Origin: Armatimonadota bacterium
Lineage (GTDB): Bacteria; Armatimonadota; Zipacnadia; Zipacnadales; UBA5352
Length of the DNA stretch: 11,623 bases
Assembly (NCBI GenBank): GCA_034722055.1
Contig: JAYENL010000087.1
Location: 1-11,623, forward strand
Direction: 5' to 3'
A program made the translations under genes and the position numbers. The notes under the pieces are model-generated. The model had not been told where the DNA came from. It did no database searches and saw nothing but the letters and a program-made list of their open reading frames with translations. Every line of letters begins with the position of its first letter. The stretch's first letter is position 1. This document shows, one piece after another, positions 1,413-11,623 of the stretch.

Positions 1413-3356
1413 CTACCAGTTCATCGGGTAGACCTGCATTCCCTCGATGAAGAAGCCCAACGTGGTGAAGAAGCCGCCATTGATGAGGTCGCCGACCACC
1501 AGTCCCAGGAAGAAGGGGAGCGCCCGGCGGTAGAGCCTCGGCCCGCCGTAGCGCAGGATCAGGGACTTCGCGGCCCACGCCAGCAGGAAGGGGAACCACT
1601 GGGCGCCCATGCTGGGCGTGTTGGCGACGGCGTAGCCCACCGGATGGAACGGCCACCACAAGAAGCGCGTCCGCATGGCGAACAGCCCCAGCGTCACCAC
1701 CAGTCCGCCGCCGACGAAGATGAGCCCCAGCAGGTCGGCCGGCTGCGGCGCCTGCAGGTAGCTGGCCAGGGCCTCGAAGGGCCTCTGCCCCTGCCGCAGC
1801 CGCCAGACCTCGCCCTTTGCGGTGGCCCCCAGCAGGTGCCAGACCCACAGCGCGCCCCAGAAGGCCACCGGGACGCCGACCGCAGTGGCGCCGCCCATCG
1901 CCAGCGTCATGCGGGAGCGGTCGATGGACAGCTCGTGCGCCAGCTTGTAGCCGTCGAGCTGGTGGGGCATGACGACGCAGCGCAGGTCATACGAGGAGAT
2001 GTTGGCGAGGAAGGCCATGACGGTCAGGTCCCGGGGGCCGAACCTGCGCGCGCCGGCGGTCTCCACGATCAGCGAGCTTGGATCCACGCGCGGGCCGAAG
2101 AGCCAGGCGTCGCCGGTCTCCGCCCGGATGCGCGTGGCCGCGGTGAGATAGACCAGCGACAGGCCGATGGTCAGCGCGGCCAGCCACGTGCTCATGCCCG
2201 CAACCTGGGCGAAGCCCACCATGGCGCCGAAGCTCAGCAGCAGGCATACCACCGCCCAGCGGGGCGTGCTGGAACGCCCTTCGGCGTCGGGCGAGAAGGT
2301 CTCCCGCAGGATGGTGGCGAGCTCGGCCCGCCCCACCCAGATGCTCAGCACCGTCAGGCCGACGAAGGCCCCCGCGCCCTGGTGCTCGGCGAAGGGGAAG
2401 CGGCTGAGCCCGCCTGTCCCCCACTCCGAGACGCCGAAGGCCGCCGCCAGCACCCGCGAGAGCTTCCGCGCCAGGTGGAAGAACCAGCACGAGAAGGTGA
2501 CCTCCGCGGTCAGCAGGTAGGCGATGCCGATGACGAAGGGGTAGAACGACAGCCGCAGGCCGCCCATGGCATTCCAGGGCGGGCTCGTGAAGTGCCGGGA
2601 AAGGTTGACGTTCCGCAGCTCCACCTTGGGGATCTGCGGGAAGTTGCGGTTGAGCGTGTTGAGGCCGCCCAGCAGGAAGGGGATCGCCATGCCGATCAGC
2701 GCCACCGGGTTGCGCCAGAAGCCGCCACTGCGCGCGGTCACCTCCAGCGGCACGTAGACCGTGGGGAAGGTCAGGCGCTCGCGGCGGATCCACTGGCCGC
2801 GGACGATGGCGGAGAGGCTCAGCGTGCACAGGGCGAAGACGAAGATGAAGCCGCACCAGATGATCCCCGGCCCCAGCCAGGCGTCCACGGGCAGCGGGCC
2901 GCCCTCGAAGAAGGGCCTGAGCTGCCGGGGATCGCTGGGGGCGATCCACTCCGGGATGTACTCGTGGAACTGCGCCCACTCGTTCTCGGGCGTGGCGAGG
3001 TAGTAGGGTGAGGCCAGCTCCGGGACGATGAAGTGAATCGCTCCCGAGGAGGCCAGCACCGAGCCGGTGGTCGCCATGACGTAGACCACGATCAGCTCGC
3101 GCTGGCTGAGCCCCCAGCGGTGGCTCAGCGCGCCCACCGCGGCGCTGATCGCCAGCACCGCCAGCAGGGCGCTGAAGGCGCCCACGGGCACGGAGGTGTT
3201 GGCCATGGCGGTGTGGCCGCGGCGCCCGCCGAGCACCAGCTCCGCCCAGTGGATCATGGCGATGGCGGTCAGCAGCGCCAGCAGCCCGGCGATCACCGCC
3301 GGGGGCGTGATGGCCGGCCTCTGCTCCGCCGGCGCCTCCGCGCCGGTTGGCGTCAC
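1413..3356 (-). CDS. DUF6785/DUF6784-family multi-pass membrane protein (putative transporter), paralog 1
   Basis: Many hydrophobic segments. Motifs WIRRERLTFPTVYVPLE, FPFAEHQGAGA, RIRAETG, WWPFHPVGY and KSLILRYGG..LYRRALPFFLG are shared with 9381-11360. The start is uncertain (GTG 3356 or GTG 3380). The ORF-track extension to 3518 is translated repeat DNA. Stop TAG at 1413-1415. Confidence 0.8.
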   Translation of the reverse strand: MTPTGAEAPAEQRPAITPPAVIAGLLALLTAIAMIHWAELVLGGRRGHTAMANTSVPVGAFSALLAVLAISAAVGALSHRWGLSQRELIVVYVMATTGSVLASSGAIHFIVPELASPYYLATPENEWAQFHEYIPEWIAPSDPRQLRPFFEGGPLPVDAWLGPGIIWCGFIFVFALCTLSLSAIVRGQWIRRERLTFPTVYVPLEVTARSGGFWRNPVALIGMAIPFLLGGLNTLNRNFPQIPKVELRNVNLSRHFTSPPWNAMGGLRLSFYPFVIGIAYLLTAEVTFSCWFFHLARKLSRVLAAAFGVSEWGTGGLSRFPFAEHQGAGAFVGLTVLSIWVGRAELATILRETFSPDAEGRSSTPRWAVVCLLLSFGAMVGFAQVAGMSTWLAALTIGLSLVYLTAATRIRAETGDAWLFGPRVDPSSLIVETAGARRFGPRDLTVMAFLANISSYDLRCVVMPHQLDGYKLAHELSIDRSRMTLAMGGATAVGVPVAFWGALWVWHLLGATAKGEVWRLRQGQRPFEALASYLQAPQPADLLGLIFVGGGLVVTLGLFAMRTRFLWWPFHPVGYAVANTPSMGAQWFPFLLAWAAKSLILRYGGPRLYRRALPFFLGLVVGDLINGGFFTTLGFFIEGMQVYPMNW

Positions 3357-3466
3357 GCCGCCCTCGAGTGCGATGACCACAGCCTCCGTGTGGGGATGCG
3401 TGGGACGCCGAGGCGCTTCGGCGAGGCGAGGTGGGAGACCTTCGCCGGAGAGAGCGAGTGTTGTTA

Positions 3467-3863
3467 GGAGGGGCGAGCTTCCTTGCTCGCCCGGTCGTTG
3501 TCGTCTGACCGTTCTCAAGCGCGTCGCCGGGACGACGCACGGACAGGAGTGTCCGTGCCACGGAACGATAGGCTGCGCTCAGGCGCCCCTCCGTTCCGGC
3601 GATGCAATGCCCACGTCTGGCGCGTTCGGGGAGGCCGATGTCCGGGGGGCATTCCTGGAGGGGCCGCTCCGAGCGCCGCGCACGCCGGCGCGAGGAGTGA
3701 GGCCCGCGAGGGCCAAAGGTTCCACCCCGGCCCATGCCGGGCGTCTCTGGGAAGGCCCAAACGGCGTGCAGGGGAGGGCCCCTGCACTACTTAACACTTG
3801 GGCCGGGACCGTGTGCGGGAGGACCGGCGCCAACAGGTCCATCCAGCGGCCGGTGTGGAACCT
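3467..3863. repeat. Intergenic cluster of REP-like palindromes
   Basis: GGAG-GGGCGAGC-TTCCTT-GCTCGCCC at 3467-3492. GCACGGACA-GGAG-TGTCCGTGC-CAC at 3537-3561 (GTGG-headed on minus). TGGAGGGGCCG...AGGTTCCACCCCGGCCCA at 3656-3734. GTAGTGCAGGGG-CCCT-CCCCTGCACGCCGT on minus at 3761-3790. Inverted AGGTTCCACACCGGCC on minus at 3848-3863. Confidence 0.85.
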
Positions 3864-3902
3864 GCCGCCTGCGCAAGACGACCAGAGGCCTGCAGTTGCC
3901 GT

Positions 3903-6900
3903 TCAGTAGTACGCGATCTGCCGCCTCTCCCCTCCCCGTGCCGGCGTCTGGCGCAGGATTCTCTCATTCCGATGCGCTGCACTGCCGAGGCTCTTGTCGC
4001 CGACCGGGGCCAGCCTGAAGTCCTGCCACGAGCCGAGGCCAATGACGCGCTCGGCGGTCACCGACAGGTCCAATTTGCCCATGCGCGTGAGCGTGCCCTC
4101 CACGCACAGGACGGGGCTGGTATACAGCGCCCGCCCGCACTCCTGATAGGCCTCCTCGAAGACCGCCACATCCACCAGGCCGACATCGTCCTCGAGCGAG
4201 ATGAAGATGGCGGTGCGGCCGCTGCGGGTGGGCGGCCTAGCGCGGGAGACCACGATCCCCGCCACCCGCACGCGGTCGCCGTCCTCGCACTCCCACAGCC
4301 CCGTGCTGGACGTGACTTCCATCTCGTCGAGACGCTCGCGCCAGAAGCTGAAGGCGTTGCGCGTGGTGCTGACACCGAGGACGTGCAGGTCGGTGGCGAC
4401 GCGCCCCACCTCGGTCATGGGGTCCAGCGACGGCAGCATGCCCACCAGGTCGTCCACGTCGCCGTATGACAGCGTGGGGCTGCTGCGCCGCCCGCGCCGG
4501 TCGGCCACGGCGTCATCCGGCAGCGCGCCCAGCCGCCACATCAGCTCCGGGACGTTCAGCCCCGTGAAGGCGAAGGCCCGGGCCAGCACCAGGTTCTCGA
4601 CCGCCGGCCGCGGGATGCTCGTGCGGCGGCAGAAGTCCTCCAGGGACGCGAAGGCGCCGCCGCGCTCCCGCTCGGCCAGGATGCGCTCCACGCTCCGCTC
4701 CTGCAGCCCCCGCACCATCCACAGCCCCAGGCGGATGTCGCCGGTGGGGTTGTCATCGTACTCCACCAGGCAGCGGTCCTCGCTGCGATTCACGCACGGG
4801 GGCAGGATGCCCGCGCCGCAGCGCTTGGCGTCCTCGGCGACGGTGCGCGGCGGATAGAAGCCCATGGGCTGGCTGGAGAGGATCCCGGCCGCCAGCTCCG
4901 CCGGGTAGTGGGCCTTCAGCCAGGCGGTCTGGTAGGACATCTTGCCGAAGCAGGCCGCGTGGGCCTTGTTGAAGCCGTAGGCCGCGAAGCCCCGGATCAT
5001 GCCGAAGATCTCCTCCGCCACCTCCGGTCGGATGCCGCGCTCGCCGGCGCGGAGCATGAAGCGCTCCTGCAGCTCCTCCAGGTCCTCGGGGGCGATGTCG
5101 CTGGTCATCATCCGGCGCAGCACGTCCGCCTCGCCCAGCGAGAAGCCGCCGATGGCGTGGGCGATGCGCAGCACCTGCTCCTGATAGATGACCACGCCGA
5201 AGGTGCTCTGCAGGATGGGCTCGAGGTCCGGGTGGGGGTAGGTGACCTGCTGCAGGCCGTGCTTGCGCAGCACATACGGGGTGATCATGTCGGCCTGCAC
5301 CGGCCCGGGGCGAAACAGCGAGATGTTGGCGACGATGTCCTCGAACTCGGTCGGCTGGGTGCGGCCGAGCAGGTTCCGCTGACCGGGGCTCTCGAGCTGG
5401 AACAGCCCCACGGTGCGGGTGCCGCGCAAGAGCTGGTAGGTCGGCTCGTCATCCAGCGGGAGGGCGTCGAGGTCCGGGCGAACGCCCTCACGGCCCTCGA
5501 TGTGATCCAGGGCATCCTCGATGGCGGAGTGGATGCGCAGGCCGAGGATGTCCATCTTCACCAGCCCCAGCGCCTCCACGTCATCCTTGTCGAACTGGGC
5601 GATGACGATGCCCTTGTTCGCCAGCTCCAGGGGCACCATCTCGGTCAGCGGCCTGGCGCCGATGAGCAGCCCGCCGACGTGCACCGACAGGTGCCGCGGG
5701 AAGCCGGAGATCTCCCGGCACAGCTCGATGAGCAGCCGCTTGTCCTCCACATCCAGCTCGGCGTCGCGGACCTCGGGGTACTTCTCGATGGCCTCGGCGA
5801 TGTCGGCGGCGCGGATGTGCGGGAAGACTGAGGCCAGCTTGCCGATCTCCTCCTCCGGGAAGCCGAGGGCCTTGCCGATCTCCCGAATCGCCGAGCGGGC
5901 GCGGAAGGTGTTGACGGTGCAGACCGCGGCCACTTGCTCGGCGCCGTACTTGTCGTAGATGTACTTGGTGACCTCATCGCGGCGGCGGGTGTCGAAGTCC
6001 ACGTCGATGTCCGGCATGTTCCGGCGCTTGGGGTTGAGGAAGCGCTCGAAGAGCAGGTCGTTGGCGATGGGATCCGCGAGCGTGATGCCCAGCACGTAGC
6101 TGACGATGGAGTCCCCGGCAGAGCCGCGGCCCGAGCAGCGGATGCCCTGCTCGCGGGCGAAGCGCACGATGTCCCAGACGATCAGGAAATAGTCTGAGAG
6201 GCCCTTATCCTCGATGATGGACAGCTCGTGCTCGAGGCGCTCGCGGACTTGGCCGGTGACGTGGCCGTAGAGGCGCGCGGCGCCATGATAGCACAGCCGG
6301 CGGAGGTACTGGCGCGTGCCCTCGCCCTCGCGGGGAGGCGGATACGAGACGGCGGCGGGGGATGCCGTTTCCGTTGTAGGGCGCGGACCCGGGAGGTCGC
6401 TTCGCGACCTCGGGGAGTTTGCTGTGCAAACTCCAGTAGCGCTCGCACTACGAGCGCAGCCGCGCCGGCCGTTGCCGTCATCCGCTGCCGTTATGTCGTA
6501 CGGAGGGGCGGGCTTCCCAGCCCGCCCGCCGTTGTCGTCTGTCGTTGCCGTTGTAGGGCGCGGACCTGTGCCGCGCCCGCCGTCGTCGTCTGCCGTTACC
6601 GTCGCGTCGTACGGAGGGGTGGGCTGCCCAGCCCGCCCGGCCGTTTGTCGTTTGTCGTTGCCGCCGTGCCGTCGCCGCAGGTTACAGCGGGCCTGTGGCC
6701 CCCTGGCGGGCGAGGGCGCCCGCCTCCCATAATGAAGGGAACGGCGGGCCGGACGGTGGTCCGGCCCCTCCATACGGCAAGGCAACGGCAATCGCCCTGC
6801 ATCCGGAGCCGTTATGCCGTACGGAGCGGGGGGCTTCCCAGCCCGCCCGCCGTTGTCGTCTGTCGTTGCCGTTGTAGGGCGCGGACCTGTGCCGCGCCAG

Positions 6901-8411
6901 CCGTTGTCGTCTGTCGTTGCCGTCGCGTCGTACGGAGGGGTGGGCTGCCCAGCCCGCCCGGCCGTTTGTCGTTTGTCGTTGCCGCCGTGCCGCCGCCGCA
7001 GGTTACAGCGGGCCTGTGGCCCCCTGGCGGGCGAGGGCGCCCGCCTCCCATAATGAAGGGAACGGCGGGCCGGACGGTGGTCCGGCCCCTCCATACGGCA
7101 AGGCAACGGCAATCGCCCTGCATCCGGAGCCGTTATGCCGTACGGAGCGGGGGGCTTCCCAGCCCGCCCGCCGTTGTCGTCTGTCGTTGCCGTTGTAGGG
7201 CGCGGACCTGTGCCGCGCCAGCCGTTGTCGTCTGTCGTTGCCGTCGCGTCGTACGGAGGGGTGGGCTTCCTTGCCCGCCCGCCGTTGTCTGTCGTTGCCG
7301 TTGTAGGGCGCGGACCTGTGCCGCGCCAAAAGGAGTCGGGCTGGAAGCCCGACCTACGCGAGGAACACCGCTGTTCGTGATCGGGCTGGAAGCCCGACCT
7401 GCGCGAGAATGACGGGGCCGTTCGCCGTCCCGGCGCTTCCCGATTGCCAATTGCCGCTTCCCCATTCCCGCCCTCACCACCCCGCCTGCAATGCTCCCGC
7501 AGCTCATCCATATCGAAGGCGGGGAAATGGAAGGTCTCCAGGTCCAGCTCCCACTGGCAGCGCTGTGCGATGCGCGCGGCGTTTTCGACCGCCTCCGGCT
7601 GGTCGGCGAAGAGCTCCGCCATCTGGTGAGGATCCTTGAGGTAGAACTCGGCGTTGGGCCGCCGGTCGGGGTTGGGCTCATCGACCGTCTGCCGCGCGCC
7701 CATGCAGACCATGACATCCTGGAGGCGATACAGCGACTTCTCGACGTAATGCACGTTGTTGGTCGCCACGCACTCCAGCTCCAGGCGGGCGGCCAGGTCG
7801 GCCAGGCGGTAGCGCAGGCGGCTGTGCGGGCGAGGCAGCAGGTGATTGTGCAGCTCGATGAAGAGGCGTTCGGGGCCGAACAGGTCGCGGTAGTGCTCGG
7901 CGACCGCCCGGGCCTCGGAGAAGCGCTTGCGGTCCAGGAGGCTGGGGATCTCGCCGCGCTTGCGGCAGGCCGTCAGCGCGATGAGGTGGTCGGAGTGCCG
8001 GCGCAGGTTCTCCTGGCTCAGCACCGGGTTGTCGCGGTCCACGTCCTCGTAGGCCGCCGAGAAGGCGCTCTCGCGGCGGGCCTCGCCCAGCCGGGCAGCG
8101 GTCACCAGCCGGCAGAGGTTCGAGTAGCCCTCGTTGTCCTCGGCCAGCAGCAGCAGGTGTGGCGGACGTGCGGAGTCCTCAAGCAGATCGGGCAGCACGG
8201 GCTCGACGGTAAACTCCACGCCGATGATGGGCCTGACGCCGACCTCGGTTGCGGCCTGGAAGAACCGCACCGCGCCGGCGAGGGAGTTGTGATCGGTCAG
8301 CGCGATGGCGGACATCCCCCTGTCGCGCGCCGCCCGCGCCAGCTCATCGACCGGCGCCGCGCCATCGTAGAAGGAGAAGTTGCTGTGTGCGTGCAGGTGG
8401 ACGAAGTTCAT
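3903..8411 (-). CDS. dnaE2: DNA polymerase III alpha subunit, error-prone DnaE2/ImuC-like, with a ~390-aa repeat-derived in-frame insertion
   Basis: Starts MNFVHLHAHSNFSFYDG (ATG 8411). PHP motifs ALTDHN, IIGVE, HLLLLA..NEGYSNL and ATNNVHY. Polymerase motifs GRGSAGDS, LLFERFL, MPDIDVDFD, RHLSVHVGG, LVKMDILGL, GLFQLES, YQEQV and AYGFNKAHA. DnaE2-type features are SQPMGFYPP, an OB fold with RARPPTRSG..FISLED, no tau-binding tail, and an upstream LexA box. 1502 aa. The family is certain; the DnaE2 subtype is likely. Confidence 0.9.
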   Translation of the reverse strand: MNFVHLHAHSNFSFYDGAAPVDELARAARDRGMSAIALTDHNSLAGAVRFFQAATEVGVRPIIGVEFTVEPVLPDLLEDSARPPHLLLLAEDNEGYSNLCRLVTAARLGEARRESAFSAAYEDVDRDNPVLSQENLRRHSDHLIALTACRKRGEIPSLLDRKRFSEARAVAEHYRDLFGPERLFIELHNHLLPRPHSRLRYRLADLAARLELECVATNNVHYVEKSLYRLQDVMVCMGARQTVDEPNPDRRPNAEFYLKDPHQMAELFADQPEAVENAARIAQRCQWELDLETFHFPAFDMDELREHCRRGGEGGNGEAAIGNREAPGRRTAPSFSRRSGFQPDHEQRCSSRRSGFQPDSFWRGTGPRPTTATTDNGGRARKPTPPYDATATTDDNGWRGTGPRPTTATTDDNGGRAGKPPAPYGITAPDAGRLPLPCRMEGPDHRPARRSLHYGRRAPSPARGPQARCNLRRRHGGNDKRQTAGRAGQPTPPYDATATTDDNGWRGTGPRPTTATTDDNGGRAGKPPAPYGITAPDAGRLPLPCRMEGPDHRPARRSLHYGRRAPSPARGPQARCNLRRRHGGNDKRQTAGRAGQPTPPYDATVTADDDGGRGTGPRPTTATTDDNGGRAGKPAPPYDITAADDGNGRRGCARSASATGVCTANSPRSRSDLPGPRPTTETASPAAVSYPPPREGEGTRQYLRRLCYHGAARLYGHVTGQVRERLEHELSIIEDKGLSDYFLIVWDIVRFAREQGIRCSGRGSAGDSIVSYVLGITLADPIANDLLFERFLNPKRRNMPDIDVDFDTRRRDEVTKYIYDKYGAEQVAAVCTVNTFRARSAIREIGKALGFPEEEIGKLASVFPHIRAADIAEAIEKYPEVRDAELDVEDKRLLIELCREISGFPRHLSVHVGGLLIGARPLTEMVPLELANKGIVIAQFDKDDVEALGLVKMDILGLRIHSAIEDALDHIEGREGVRPDLDALPLDDEPTYQLLRGTRTVGLFQLESPGQRNLLGRTQPTEFEDIVANISLFRPGPVQADMITPYVLRKHGLQQVTYPHPDLEPILQSTFGVVIYQEQVLRIAHAIGGFSLGEADVLRRMMTSDIAPEDLEELQERFMLRAGERGIRPEVAEEIFGMIRGFAAYGFNKAHAACFGKMSYQTAWLKAHYPAELAAGILSSQPMGFYPPRTVAEDAKRCGAGILPPCVNRSEDRCLVEYDDNPTGDIRLGLWMVRGLQERSVERILAERERGGAFASLEDFCRRTSIPRPAVENLVLARAFAFTGLNVPELMWRLGALPDDAVADRRGRRSSPTLSYGDVDDLVGMLPSLDPMTEVGRVATDLHVLGVSTTRNAFSFWRERLDEMEVTSSTGLWECEDGDRVRVAGIVVSRARPPTRSGRTAIFISLEDDVGLVDVAVFEEAYQECGRALYTSPVLCVEGTLTRMGKLDLSVTAERVIGLGSWQDFRLAPVGDKSLGSAAHRNERILRQTPARGGERRQIAYY
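6345..7511. repeat. REP-like hairpin array embedded in frame within dnaE2
   Basis: Identical GTAGGGCGCGGACCTGTGCCGCGCC at 6553, 6874, 7195 and 7303, plus an interrupted copy at 6376. GGAG-headed GGGCGGGCT..AGCCCGCCC variants at 6502, 6613, 6823, 6934, 7144 and 7255. GGAGGGGCCGGACCACCGTCCGGCCC on minus at 6746-6771 and 7067-7092. G(T/C)AGGTCGGGCTTCCAGCCCGA on minus at 7335-7357 and 7381-7402. Linkers are of the CCGTTGTCGTCTGTCGTTG type. Boundaries are approximate. Confidence 0.9.
6487..7281. repeat. 321-bp direct tandem repeat (~2.5 units; 107 aa per unit)
   Basis: GCCGTTATG recurs at 6487, 6808 and 7129. GGTTACAGCGG recurs at 6680 and 7001. 6601-6946 matches 6922-7267 with a single mismatch seen (T6672/C6993). 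Confidence 0.95.
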
Positions 8412-8454
8412 GGATTCTCGCGGTTCGTTATCGGCTCTGAGCGGCGAGAAAAGG

Positions 8455-8742
8455 TTGTCGTTGTAGGGCGCGGACCTGTGCCGCGCCGGTCGTTGTCGTG
8501 TCGTTTGGAGGGGCGCGACTACGGGAGCTGCTGCGCAGCTCTCGCGCCCGGTCGTTGTCGTGCGCCGTACCGTCATGCCGTACGGAGCGATGGGGCTTCA
8601 GACCCGCCGGCCGTTTGTCGTTTGTCGTCCGTGGTGCGGGCGCCCCCGCCCGCACGCCGTTGCCGCCCGCGACTGAACAACGGCGTCGGGCTGGAAGCCC
8701 GACCTACGCGAAGATTTCCTACGCGAAGATGTCCCACGTAGG
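8455..8742. repeat. Intergenic REP-like array between the DUF6504 gene and dnaE2
   Basis: GTAGGGCGCGGACCTGTGCCGCGCC at 8463-8487, identical to the copies inside dnaE2. GGAG-GGGCGCGA...TCGCGCCC at 8507-8549. Degenerate GGAG hairpin at 8584. GTGGTGCGGGCG-CCCC-CGCCCGCACGCCGT at 8631-8660. GTAGGTCGGGCTTCCAGCCCGAC on minus at 8685-8707. A 15-bp duplication CCTACGCGAAGAT(T/G)T at 8703-8732. Confidence 0.9.
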
Positions 8743-8762: not shown

Positions 8763-9023
8763 TCAGTCCCACACGCGGTAGACGTGCCACTGATCGGTGG
8801 CGGCATAGCGGCAGAGATCGAAGCACTTGCCGGCTTCGGTCATCACCCGCAGGAAGCATCGCTCTCCATCGCCCTCCCACCAGCGCCCCAGCAGCCGCCA
8901 GGTCCCGCCGGTCTCCACCACCCGGTAGCGCCTGCCCCGCCAGGTGAATGCATCCGGGCAGCGATCGCCCCCTATGGTCGCGATCTCGATCGGCTCGCCT
9001 ATCGACTTGGTCATCGTTACCAT
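8763..9023 (-). CDS. DUF6504-family small protein (resembles a stand-alone ImuB C-terminal domain)
   Basis: P.AFTWRGRRYRV...G.W....RWWEG..ER.F.RV....G..FDL.R.....QWHVYRVWD matches the Trp-rich pattern I recognise for DUF6504/ImuB-C. It is the first gene behind a LexA-boxed promoter and lies upstream of dnaE2. The start is ATG 9023 (GTG 9029 or ATG 9014 also possible). Confidence 0.8.
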   Translation of the reverse strand: MVTMTKSIGEPIEIATIGGDRCPDAFTWRGRRYRVVETGGTWRLLGRWWEGDGERCFLRVMTEAGKCFDLCRYAATDQWHVYRVWD

Positions 9024-9053: not shown

Positions 9054-9082
9054 AGTATATAGAACGTGCGTTCGAGTGTCAA
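9054..9082 (-). promoter_or_regulatory. sigma70/sigmaA promoter of the DUF6504-dnaE2 unit
   Basis: The minus strand reads TTGACA (9082-9077), a 17-nt spacer, then TATACT (9059-9054). It lies in a locally AT-rich patch about 30 bp upstream of the DUF6504 start. Confidence 0.9.
9061..9074. promoter_or_regulatory. LexA (SOS) operator, GAAC-N4-GTTC type
   Basis: CGAACGCACGTTCT on the minus strand matches the Gram-positive/Chloroflexi-type CGAACRNRYGTTC consensus and lies entirely within the -35/-10 spacer. Confidence 0.9.
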
Positions 9083-9148
9083 GGGGGAGATAAATGGTTT
9101 CGCGGCAATCCAGCAGGCTGTCGTGGATGGGTTGAGGAACGGCGTGTT

Positions 9149-9197
9149 GGGCCGACCTCCTCCGGCTGCAAAGCAGCCGTCGTCGTGCGGCCCCTCC
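9149..9197 (-). repeat. REP-like GGAG-GGGCCG...CGGCCC element with a nested hairpin
   Basis: The minus strand reads GGAGGGGCCG-cacgacga-CGGCTGC-TTT-GCAGCCG-gaggaggt-CGGCCC, with the same head and outer stem as 6746-6771, 3657-3733 and 11472-11584. Confidence 0.75.
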
Positions 9198-9256
9198 GAC
9201 GGCAACAGCTCACGCCCACCGTCGGCAGATGCGTTGCGGTACAGTCCTGAGCCGTC

Positions 9257-9288
9257 AGCTTGAGGCTTGCAGCTTGTAGCTTGTAGCT
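9257..9288. repeat. Heptanucleotide tandem repeat
   Basis: AGCTTGA GGCTTGC AGCTTGT AGCTTGT AGCT. Confidence 0.85.
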
Positions 9289-9380
9289 CCCTGAAAACTG
9301 CCGGCCGCTCCGGGTGGCGACGATGAGCAGCACATGCTTTCGGTTGCCGCTTCTCAGCGGGGTTGCGGTCGTTGCCGCCG

Positions 9381-11360
9381 CTATCCAAACCACACTCCCC
9401 AGCGGAGGAAGGGGCCACCCAGGGCCGCGCCCAGTGAGCCCCAGATGAGCCCCGCGGTGATGAAGTGCCCCACGGCGAAGCCCAAAAAGCCCGGGAGCGC
9501 CCGCAGATACGACTGGCTGCCGCCGTAGCGCAGCAGGATGGTCTTACAGATCCACACCACAAGGAACGGCCCCCATAGCTTGTGGCCGAAGGCCCCCGCC
9601 AGCACGTAGCCGATGGGATGCAGCGGGAAGCCGAACCAGTAGCCGCGGGCGATGGAGATGGCGGCCACCAGCAGGCCCCCGCCGATGGTGGCGATGATCC
9701 GCGGTGTGTCCGGGGGCGCGGGCATGTCCCGGGCGCGGAGCACGTTGGTGTACTCCTGACGAGCGGTGCCGGCGCCCCAGATGCCGCCGCGGAGGCCCAC
9801 GCCGCCCTCCTCGTAGTAGGGCTGGAGGTGGAAGACGAAGGCGAACACCGCGCCCACCGCCACCGCCAGCAGCAGCGTGGTCACGATCTGCCGCCAGTGG
9901 ACCTTCGTGCGCTGCGCCAGGTGCAGGCCCTCGATCTGATAGCCCGAGACCGTGGGGAAGTACCCGCGCGAGAGGAAGCCCATCATGGCGAAGATGGTCG
10001 GGGAGCGCAGGTCGCTGCTGGGACCGACCACGCCCTCCTGGCCGAGGAAGTTCCAGATGACCTTGTGCTGCTGCCCATAGGGGAAGGCCCACAGAATGGG
10101 GACGCCGGTCTCCGCGCGCAGCCGGCCGTAGACGACGCCCACGATGACCAGTATGCTCAGGTACAGCCCCGCCAGCCACGGAGCCATGCCGGCGGTGACG
10201 AAGAACATGAACAGGCCGGTGAAGCCCACGATCGCTCCCAGCAGCGCCCAGCGATAGGGCAGGCGGTCGCCGCGGCCCAGCGCGGGGCGCAGCAGGCTTC
10301 GCCAGGCGTGGCGGATGGCCTCGCGGCCCTTCCACAGCAGCACTCCGCCCATCACCAGGTAGGCGCCGATGCCCTGCTCCTGAGCGAAGGGCATGCCGCC
10401 CACTCGATAGCCCACCGAGGCCATCACCAGCGCCTGCAGCTTCTGAAACAGGTAGAAGAACCAGATCGAGAACGACAGCTCGGTGGAGATGAGGTATCCC
10501 AGGCCGATCAGGCCCGGTCGGAAGTCGATGTTCATGGGCCGGATGGCACGGAAGGGGTAGTCGGTGATTCCCCGGCTGATGTCGAAGTTGAGGGTCCCCT
10601 TGGGGCCGCCGAAGAACACCGCCCGGCTCATCAGGTAGAAGTTCAGGACCGTGGCGATCCCCATGCCGATCCAGGTGATGGGGTTGCGGAACAGCGGTGT
10701 GGCGCCCTCCTCCCCTAGAATCTCCAGCGGGAGGCGAACCAGGGGGAAGACGAGGCGCTCGTGCTCGATCCACTGCTCGGCAAAGAGGATCATCAGGCAC
10801 ATCAGCGTGCCGCCGAAGAGCACGAAGAAGCCGGTCCAGACCACAACGGGGATCCGCCAGACCTCCCACGGGATCTCCCCGGTCGGCGAGGCCTCGTAAA
10901 GCCACTTGTGGTAGATCAGCTCCGGAGGCGACAGCCAGGATGGGATGTGGGGCGCGATGGTGTCGGTGGGCGCCACTGGGGTGGAGTAGTACCAGGGGGC
11001 GCTGACGGTGGCGATCAAGAAGCGAGTCACGCCGCAGCCGAACATGAAGGTCGCCACGGTCACGAACAGGTAGACCACGATGATCTCGCCGGCCGAGAGG
11101 TCGCGCACGTAGGGGAGCCGGCGCAGCAGGGGGCTGGCGCCCGCAAGCACCAGCAGCGCCGTCAGGCCCGGGATGGAGGGCACCGCCTCGGTCATCTGGG
11201 CCGAGAGTGCGATGATCTCCCCCTGGCGGATCCAGTAGCCGGCCAGCCACGTCAGGCCGATGCTGAGCACCAGCATCGTGATGATCCGTACGTGCGTGGC
11301 CGGCCGCGCCTCTGCGTCCGGGGGGCCCGAGGGCTGGACATCGCTGATCTGCTCGTGCAT
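9381..11360 (-). CDS. DUF6785/DUF6784-family multi-pass membrane protein (putative transporter), paralog 2
   Basis: ATG 11360 (MHEQISD) follows AGGGAAG; 659 aa and hydrophobic. Motifs WIEHERLVFPLVRLPLE, STELSFSIWFF, MPFAQEQGIGA, RLRAETG, FPLHPIGY and KTILLRYGG..YLRALPGFLG are collinear with paralog 1. Stop TAG at 9381-9383. Confidence 0.82.
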   Translation of the reverse strand: MHEQISDVQPSGPPDAEARPATHVRIITMLVLSIGLTWLAGYWIRQGEIIALSAQMTEAVPSIPGLTALLVLAGASPLLRRLPYVRDLSAGEIIVVYLFVTVATFMFGCGVTRFLIATVSAPWYYSTPVAPTDTIAPHIPSWLSPPELIYHKWLYEASPTGEIPWEVWRIPVVVWTGFFVLFGGTLMCLMILFAEQWIEHERLVFPLVRLPLEILGEEGATPLFRNPITWIGMGIATVLNFYLMSRAVFFGGPKGTLNFDISRGITDYPFRAIRPMNIDFRPGLIGLGYLISTELSFSIWFFYLFQKLQALVMASVGYRVGGMPFAQEQGIGAYLVMGGVLLWKGREAIRHAWRSLLRPALGRGDRLPYRWALLGAIVGFTGLFMFFVTAGMAPWLAGLYLSILVIVGVVYGRLRAETGVPILWAFPYGQQHKVIWNFLGQEGVVGPSSDLRSPTIFAMMGFLSRGYFPTVSGYQIEGLHLAQRTKVHWRQIVTTLLLAVAVGAVFAFVFHLQPYYEEGGVGLRGGIWGAGTARQEYTNVLRARDMPAPPDTPRIIATIGGGLLVAAISIARGYWFGFPLHPIGYVLAGAFGHKLWGPFLVVWICKTILLRYGGSQSYLRALPGFLGFAVGHFITAGLIWGSLGAALGGPFLRWGVWFG

Positions 11361-11470
11361 CTGATCTTCCCTGGCCGCGCCGCGCGCAAGCTCGCCGCGG
11401 TGCTGGCGGATGACGGTGGCGTTCAAACGGACACTGGTGCTGGGTGGCAGGAGTTTGCGTACTGCCACCA

Positions 11471-11623
11471 TGGAGGGGCCGCCCCGAGCGGAGCGAGCGG
11501 GCGAGCTGTGGCGGCGGGAAGAGACGCGCAGCGTCTCCGGGGAGCGGTGCGTTGCAACGCACCGCTCAGGTTCCACCCCGGCCCACCCGTCAAGTAGTGC
11601 GGGCGCCCTCGCCTGCACGCCGT
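11471..11623 (+). repeat. REP-like composite upstream of paralog 2
   Basis: TGGAGGGGCCG...AGGTTCCACCCCGGCCCA at 11471-11585 encloses GAGACGC-GCA-GCGTCTC (11521-11537) and a perfect 26-bp palindrome (11542-11567). It is followed by GTAGTGCGGGCG-CCCT-CGCCTGCACGCCGT at 11594-11623. Confidence 0.85.

Follow-up and report, generated by a model that had tools for sequence, protein, structure and literature searches.

We analyzed an 11.6-kb contig, referred to in full as the window (JAYENL010000087.1 of assembly GCA_034722055.1), from a bacterium of the Armatimonadota. In our collection the source assembly is G000 and the window its contig C87; the assembly comprises 6.1 Mb in 330 contigs, with 68% GC and 93% completeness. 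The organisms discussed here are known to us solely from metagenome assemblies. The window carries a gene for a DnaE2-type C-family DNA polymerase, whose open reading frame (ORF) runs through about a kilobase of hairpins of the repetitive extragenic palindromic (REP) type between the PHP and palm domains. The features of the locus are collected in Table 1.

Pfam matches on the 1502-aa ORF followed the order PHP (residues 5-190), DNA_pol3_alpha (701-957), finger, HhH and OB, and the protein terminated 47 aa past the OB match. The order PHP-Pol3-HhH-OB without a C-terminal domain (CTD) is the DnaE2 layout. The ORF scored 911.8 bits on PRK05672, the DnaE2 model (cut-off 939, match split), and 917.4 bits on PRK05673 (cut-off 1002). 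A separate replicative-type DnaE is encoded by a 1182-aa open frame at G000:C321. The nearest named sequence records, at 83-84% identity, were labelled Ca. Zipacnadia, candidate division WS1 and uncultured Armatimonadia.

Table 1. Features of the dnaE2 locus, in window coordinates
Feature	Position	Strand	Basis or remarks
dnaE2-type C-family polymerase ORF, 1502 aa, without CTD	3903..8411	minus	Pfam domain order
PHP domain, residues 1-297	7521..8411	minus	Pfam and alignment
In-frame insert, ~378 codons	~6354..7487	minus	ortholog alignment, repeat mapping
Catalytic palm/thumb region	5541..6311	minus	Pfam and alignment; D801, D803 and D954 intact
Degenerate heptamer tandem array, 5 units, N-terminal end of insert	7435..7469	minus	20/28 matches at lag 7 (coding-part maximum 15)
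Two family C hairpins	7335..7407 (7335-7362, 7380-7407)		GTAG foot; 125 genome matches
321-nt tandem module, 2.6 copies, with families A, B, D and E	6479..7300		96%
Family A hairpin	6552..6580; also 6873, 7194, 7302; partial 6363-6389; intergenic 8462		GTAG foot; 31 genome matches
Family B hairpin	6815..6854; also 6494, 7136, 7247; degenerate at 6599, 6920		GGAG foot; 38 genome matches
Family D hairpin	6740..6775; second copy 7061-7096		GGAG foot; 99 genome matches
Family E hairpin	6705..6727; second copy 7026-7048		no such foot; 90 genome matches
Three small hairpins	6392..6460		middle one 6 genome copies; outer two unique
Intergenic REP cluster (A, B-like, C), DUF6504 gene to dnaE2	8412..8760		copies inside the gene form direct repeats with it (29 nt or shorter)
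DUF6504 gene, upstream of dnaE2	8767..9015	minus	50.4 bits (cut-off 24.2)
Sigma-70-type promoter TTGACA-17-TATACT with GAAC-N4-GTTC box (9062-9073) in spacer	9054..9082	minus

A REP-type array in the PHP-palm linker

We measured the linker as the residues between the anchors FHFP and LRRLC, placed with a hidden Markov model, and obtained 405 aa for G000. Since the segments AFDMDELREHC and YPPP are conserved in orthologs and the basal linker of the order is 27 aa long, the true insert amounts to about 378 codons. The initial annotation of this DNA had given it a span of 6345..7511, or ~389 codons; the insert is real, and the alignment of orthologs, which leaves both conserved segments outside it, shortens this extent. 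By alignment to solved DnaE chains the site is the PHP-palm junction, at about residues 283-289 of E. coli alpha, just past the PHP domain.

Across residues 300-700, a coding score based on hexamers, for which 1241 long ORFs served as the training set, fell from ~+1.2 to below ~+0.1, and GC at third codon positions from ~0.93 to ~0.71. The translated insert consists to 74% of R, G, P, A, T and D and to 8.5% of large hydrophobic residues and has a net charge of +27; its FoldIndex is -0.23, compared with +0.13 for the core. This composition predicts a disordered loop. A Pfam scan of the insert gave nothing above cut-off. The same was true of a 394-codon antisense ORF (6228-7412, plus strand), which we set aside as a likely by-product of the stop-poor palindromes.

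The insert holds at least five REP-type hairpin families, A to E, that are spread genome-wide and all fold as hairpins of -9 to -13 kcal/mol as DNA. Its pieces, used as BLAST queries, yielded 1159 matches on 144 other contigs, and 80% of the linker has at least five matches elsewhere in the genome. Read from the N-terminal side, a heptamer array is followed by two C hairpins, then A and B, the 321-nt module, and three small hairpins with a remnant of A. Units 1 and 2 of the module differ at 10 positions, and 274 nt are identical at period 321. The description of the insert in the initial annotation, a mosaic of hairpins shared with the flanking intergenic DNA, was right, and the cluster upstream of the gene has related families; it omitted that a tandem repeat makes most of the length. 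The 25-mer at 8463 had been called identical to four in-gene copies, and the count agrees: five copies in the window, four of them within the gene, and 16 in the genome. D is inverted relative to B within the module, whereas A and B succeed one another without a change of orientation, so that the alternation is irregular. As a head-to-tail REP module with spacers but irregular orientation, the array is best called BIME-like, after bacterial interspersed mosaic elements (BIMEs).

Six genes of the genome resemble those for REP-associated tyrosine transposases (RAYTs), and three of them exceed the NF047646 cut-off. The RAYT gene at C256 (94.1 bits; cut-off 80) is flanked by inverted family D copies, two of which are identical over 36 nt to D hairpins of the insert, which links this one family to a RAYT.

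A genome-wide survey found 1068 repeat regions (167 kb), with just nine rows inside ORFs with coding-like flanks, by a filter that requires 50 good codons on each side and lets terminal inserts escape. Two rows were the dnaE2 insert, a third, at C100, probably reflects a spurious join to a RAYT frame, and six were inserts of 8-32 aa in unrelated genes. The latter, at G000:C63, C194, C217, C88, C308 and C191 (L047-L052), lie in a glycyl-radical enzyme gene, glycosyltransferase/hydrolase-type genes, a DUF4838 gene and one without a Pfam match. A preference of REPs for SOS genes in this genome was not supported, since neither uvrA nor dinB carries an insert and the remaining in-gene repeats are in unrelated genes. 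Thus, dnaE2 is an outlier for in-gene repeats, and the SOS regulon as a whole is not.

Reading frame, gene integrity and assembly

Over 6345-7511, the dnaE frame has no stop, the other two minus frames have 4 and 7, as the initial annotation had noted in kind, and the plus frames have 1, 5 and 6. The open frame by itself is only moderately unlikely. At the stop rate of other repeat regions, its probability is ~0.006 for 378 codons and ~0.05 for the ~220 non-duplicated codons, and 367 of 1308 REP-region frames of at least 240 nt were stop-free. Stronger evidence came from the repeat spacings and from the relatives. The eight distinct spacings in the insert (45, 51, 57, 108, 111, 177, 270 and 321), about five of them independent, are all multiples of 3, compared with 106 of 284 in other repeat regions; counted by family, the figures are 9/9 and 13/52. 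Fourteen linkers longer than 40 aa (G000 included; of 26 extracted) contained no stop in 1345 core codons, against 17.8 expected from other frames, although the formal P of 2e-8 overstates the case because the rows are related and were found via intact matches. The spacing pattern and the stop-free linkers point to selection acting as a frame filter.

Frame keeping bears on two of the three explanations offered in the initial annotation, namely, that the insert is removed from the transcript or protein, as an intron or intein would be, or that it is a slippage-prone site switching the gene on and off. A removed element need not keep frame, its content would not be expected to vary between relatives as it does here, and we found no Rfam match, no Hint domain and no C-terminal intein motif (HN[CST]) in the insert. 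A frameshift switch is largely excluded, as all in-gene spacings are multiples of 3 and a change in copy number keeps the frame. Direct repeats of up to 29 nt, found both in the gene and upstream of it, might cause a deletion of the PHP part, which would be irreversible. We regard both removal and switching as hardly credible.

The flanking domains are conserved and under purifying selection. dN/dS against G001, of the same genus, was 0.19 for PHP (298 codons) and 0.17 for the catalytic part (631 codons), similar to other family pairs (0.12-0.20). G000 departs from the other 22 orthologs at none of the 313 columns in which these are invariant. Polarized changes numbered 10 non-synonymous and 28 synonymous on the G000 branch (terminal branch length 0.0064) and 19 and 37 on that of G001. 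The intact catalytic aspartates and promoter support the earlier impression that this does not look like a pseudogene.

Among 47 strain-variant sites, of which 40 were listed and 37 examined, the core showed 17 synonymous and 9 non-synonymous codons, and the insert 1 and 7, with no stop; three of the insert sites may derive from other repeat loci. Limited to 7377-7414, which is linked to unique sequence, the counts were 1 and 4. As the insert variants are mostly non-synonymous, its residues are likely neutral in content.

It may also be that the gene was crippled recently, the last expansion having harmed folding or expression, so that we would be looking at an early pseudogene whose flanks have yet to decay. 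Broken dnaE2 copies in relatives G007 and G005 fit this view, as do the dispensability of dnaE2 and the lack of a dnaE2-level match in 2 of 18 family genomes, both incomplete. We consider it unlikely, because the frame was kept stepwise within the array, the 10 differences between units 1 and 2 imply time elapsed since the duplication, no invariant residue is lost, core strain variants are mostly synonymous, and the promoter and its box are intact.

The DNA stretch is present in four runs of one study, one of which may be the source. Contigs of run X1 match 5200-6528 and 7331-8487 at 0 differences, so both insert junctions are covered; the misassembly that the initial annotation named as a possible refutation is countered at both ends, and the middle of the array is crossed by no listed piece. 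A partial artefact would be a real but shorter insert in which short reads over-counted the 321-nt unit; one unit fewer would give 271 codons, in frame. The 274 identical nucleotides at period 321, the unspanned middle and a G014 contig that breaks within the same linker, after ~200 open codons, speak for it. The 10 differences between units 1 and 2, the two confirmed junctions and, as weak evidence, a run X1 depth of 24-25 inside the duplicated unit compared with 8-17.5 on single-copy pieces make it very unlikely. Since the units share 274 identical bases despite the 10 differences, one unit too many or too few may have been counted, and the frame would hold. Joints from the insert to upstream repeats were left unused, as their sides measure at most 38 nt and most likely belong to other repeat loci.

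Loop length among relatives

The same loop spans 12 to 166 residues in relatives and is filled by different repeats. Of 38 linker rows measured, 37 were in frame without stops (36/37 without G000). Out-of-frame inserts in relatives, which would have spoken for a decaying gene, were confined to one row, a second dnaE2 copy in G005. On a 39-row tree, the loop jumps in length between sisters (405/166, 148/66 and 48/29), and a linker of 37 adjoins the 405/166 pair. All 10 genomes measured in family f5 have linkers of 26-27 aa. At DnaE-type loci from two collection scans, 140 of 157 loops were exactly 13 aa (3 of 160 loci lacked an anchor), and the longer ones belonged mostly to the closest relatives. 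The DnaE1 loop is 13-18 aa in 16/16 family genomes with both pieces listed.

The linkers have repeat types in common, but their order is not kept. The length jumps between sisters speak for turnover of the loop, as does the finding that three linkers recur many times in the genome that carries them: 47 matches for G001, 153 for G016 and 48 for G037, the last being a different element of ~200 nt. Heptamer arrays occur in six linkers. Of 18 family genomes, 17 yielded RAYTs; G004, which did not, has no family C match and a 37-aa linker. REP load alone does not set loop length, since family C matches number 84 in G021, 117 in G050 and 69 in G031, yet their loops are 26-27 aa, and G003, with 83, has 29 aa. 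As loops stayed short in G003 and in the REP-rich genomes of f5, chance appears to have decided where seeding took place. Separately, extra insertions of 15-36 aa were seen at other DnaE2 loops in L029 (G006), L033 (G040) and L031 (G037), and several in L057 (G030).

Regulation, origin of the array and known systems

The spacer of the dnaE2 promoter contains GAAC-N4-GTTC, which we take to be a LexA box. The motif also lies upstream of dinB, uvrA and two helicase-like genes, and upstream of lexA in a form with one mismatch, suggesting that dnaE2 is likely SOS-induced via a LexA-type box. The helicase-like genes lie at G000:C93:88796 and C189:3480 (864 and 933 aa). On G000:C308, uvrA, on the minus strand downstream of the box at 13221, is a double-length, 2107-aa open frame with two UvrA-like halves and no repeat insert. 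A recA motif search in the genome found none. The DUF6504 gene is likely co-transcribed with dnaE2; a second DUF6504 gene lies at G000:C37:1796-2062.

An inactive imuB was not found in the 93% complete genome, where the sole IMS/IMS_C match keeps DinB-like catalytic motifs (imuA was not searched for). This suggests a DnaE2B/X-type system. As in the DnaE2B and DnaE2X systems without ImuA and ImuB (PMC12926913), there is a second DnaE without a CTD. The genome also has a single PolY that looks active and shares the SOS box, and a short DUF6504 gene precedes dnaE2; on gene content, this subgroup is a putative one. That DUF6504 corresponds to ImuB-C is a guess, as the term does not occur in that paper.

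Residue N219 of the PHP domain (window 7755-7757) aligns with Taq D212, a position that is N in entry 3e0d, and Asn also stands at this metal-ligand position in the consensus of ortholog alignment A1. The D226N substitution abolishes the PHP exonuclease of Mycobacterium tuberculosis (Mtb) DnaE1 (PMC5636811). Judged by the motif, N219 would be the equivalent of D226, and the proofreading nuclease is predicted to be inactive, consistent with an error-prone enzyme.

Our preferred reading, which we give roughly two chances in three, is that an intact dnaE2 carries a composite REP array in its PHP-palm linker without a break in frame. The 378 residues that the array encodes would likely be translated, forming a loop that is neutral and predicted to be disordered, and the polymerase itself would be dispensable and likely SOS-induced. 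This reading corresponds to the remaining explanation of the initial annotation, a tolerated disordered linker born from selfish repeats, and it is supported by the identity of the repeats, the link of one family to a RAYT gene, frame keeping, the conserved flanks and the variable filling in relatives. In the proposed course of events, the loop would have grown from 13 to ~27 residues in the ancestor of most of the order and turned permissive. One repeat would then have seeded it, and more REPs would have been added, probably through RAYT activity and recombination, as has been proposed for BIMEs (PMC2817692). A 321-nt tandem duplication would have multiplied the array. Selection would have purged frame-breaking alleles, with residue identity mattering little. 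The cost may have been low because LexA would repress the gene most of the time and DnaE1 replicates the genome; dnaE2 is non-essential in all genetic studies that PMC3919608 cites.

Several observations weigh against this reading. Neutrality alone does not explain why the in-gene array of dnaE2 is so much larger than any other (at most 32 aa) nor why REP-rich f5 genomes have loops of 26-27 aa. At the six RAYT loci found in the 93% complete genome, there are no A, B or C copies, and the one E copy is distant from the gene. The putative LexA box is not enriched genome-wide (29 occurrences against 28 for the control) and is informative by placement alone. With no listed public piece across the array middle, the 321-nt unit may have been miscounted, and dN/dS is blind to very recent loss of function. 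Among the relatives, the second dnaE2 copy of G005 (C542, L054) has a frameshift near its start and an out-of-frame 241-codon repeat linker with a TAG; this copy could belong to a contaminant contig, result from misassembly or be a pseudogene. In the dnaE2 of G007 (C191, L010), a TAG stands where the PHP domain has a conserved Trp at its end.

The outlier status of dnaE2 among the 1068 repeat regions could also mean that RAYT-spread hairpins accumulate preferentially in a mutator gene. The hairpin array, with at least 17 mRNA stems, or the long basic loop would then lower or modulate the dose or activity of DnaE2, and its length would be selected or changed by unequal recombination of 321-nt units, whose gain and loss would tune the amount or working of the error-prone polymerase. 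The predicted transcript fold has many stems (-605 kcal/mol over 1134 nt, without a shuffle control), and every spacing keeps the frame, so that a stepwise change in length is possible; moreover, PMC3733652 speculates that REP inserts alter the activity of repair genes. Were this true, selfish repeats would set the stress mutation rate of their host. We find tuning rather unlikely, because neither sequence, structure nor length is conserved in relatives, the insert variants are mainly non-synonymous, the coding strand has no terminator-like site, and two other genes of the regulon, uvrA and dinB, are free of inserts.

REPs in dnaE2 were already known. Di Nocera et al. (2013; PMC3733652) described intragenic GTAG/CGTC REPs in dnaE2 and other repair genes, translated in frame, with clusters of 43-82 aa, and speculated on mutator effects. 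The four dnaE2 cases in their list are O. terrae 934-971, S. wittichi 166-246, R. palustris 128-157 and E. litoralis 175-203, in addition to R. conorii dnaE 853-861. The initial annotation, which knew of no kilobase-scale REP array inside a C-family polymerase, therefore claimed too much novelty, but the inserts published in that survey have at most 82 residues and lie at other sites, inside the PHP domain or far C-terminal. Sites there mostly differ between species, whereas the family studied here refills one loop. What is new is the size of the insert (~378 aa against a published maximum of 43-82 aa, i.e., ~4.6 times the largest REP-encoded stretch of the survey), its site and the natural length series. 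A literature search with thin coverage of subscription journals found no kilobase-scale case larger than those of PMC3733652. An extreme form of a known phenomenon, seen across the lineage, explains the insert well.

Like the repeats of the REP/BIME-RAYT systems of Nunvar et al. (2010; PMC2817692) and PMC6006769, those of the insert are hairpins, some families exceed 100 copies, and modules of mixed REP types are arranged in tandem. The GT[AG]G tetranucleotide expected at the 5' foot of RAYT-associated REPs is present in families A and C (as GTAG) but not in B, D or E, and of the five families D alone supplies inverted copies flanking a RAYT gene. Unlike those systems, the array is coding and frame-filtered, and most units share one orientation instead of strictly alternating; in addition, the GGAG foot of families B and D appears in the main text of neither paper. 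Rickettsia palindromic elements (RPEs), as cited in PMC3733652 and PMC3184786, are likewise palindromic repeats in frame in probably functional proteins. They are single units of ~105-146 nt spread over many genes, in contrast to a kilobase array in one gene with few others hit.

The gene shows that a C-family polymerase can hold ~380 extra repeat codons between PHP and palm while its flanks stay under purifying selection, and it offers an example of a predicted-disordered protein sequence born from mobile repeats. The natural length series of this one loop, which runs from 27 to 405 residues and has DnaE1 for a control, bears on a question raised in PMC3733652, whether repair genes are fortuitous, tolerant hosts of REPs or are targeted and altered by them. 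Such genes also call for care in annotation, as they drop below model cut-offs and break contigs.

Elsewhere in the window, two paralogous DUF6785/DUF6784 membrane-protein genes lie on either side of the operon (1413-3374 and 9381-11471, both on the minus strand). Further repeat clusters occupy 3380-3900, 9090-9320 and 11330-11623, and the families of the first flank RAYT genes at C193 and C324. In another contig, G000:C328:5182-5518 (minus strand) is an atypical stretch inside a 1855-aa ORF, the ends of which resemble those of an intein.

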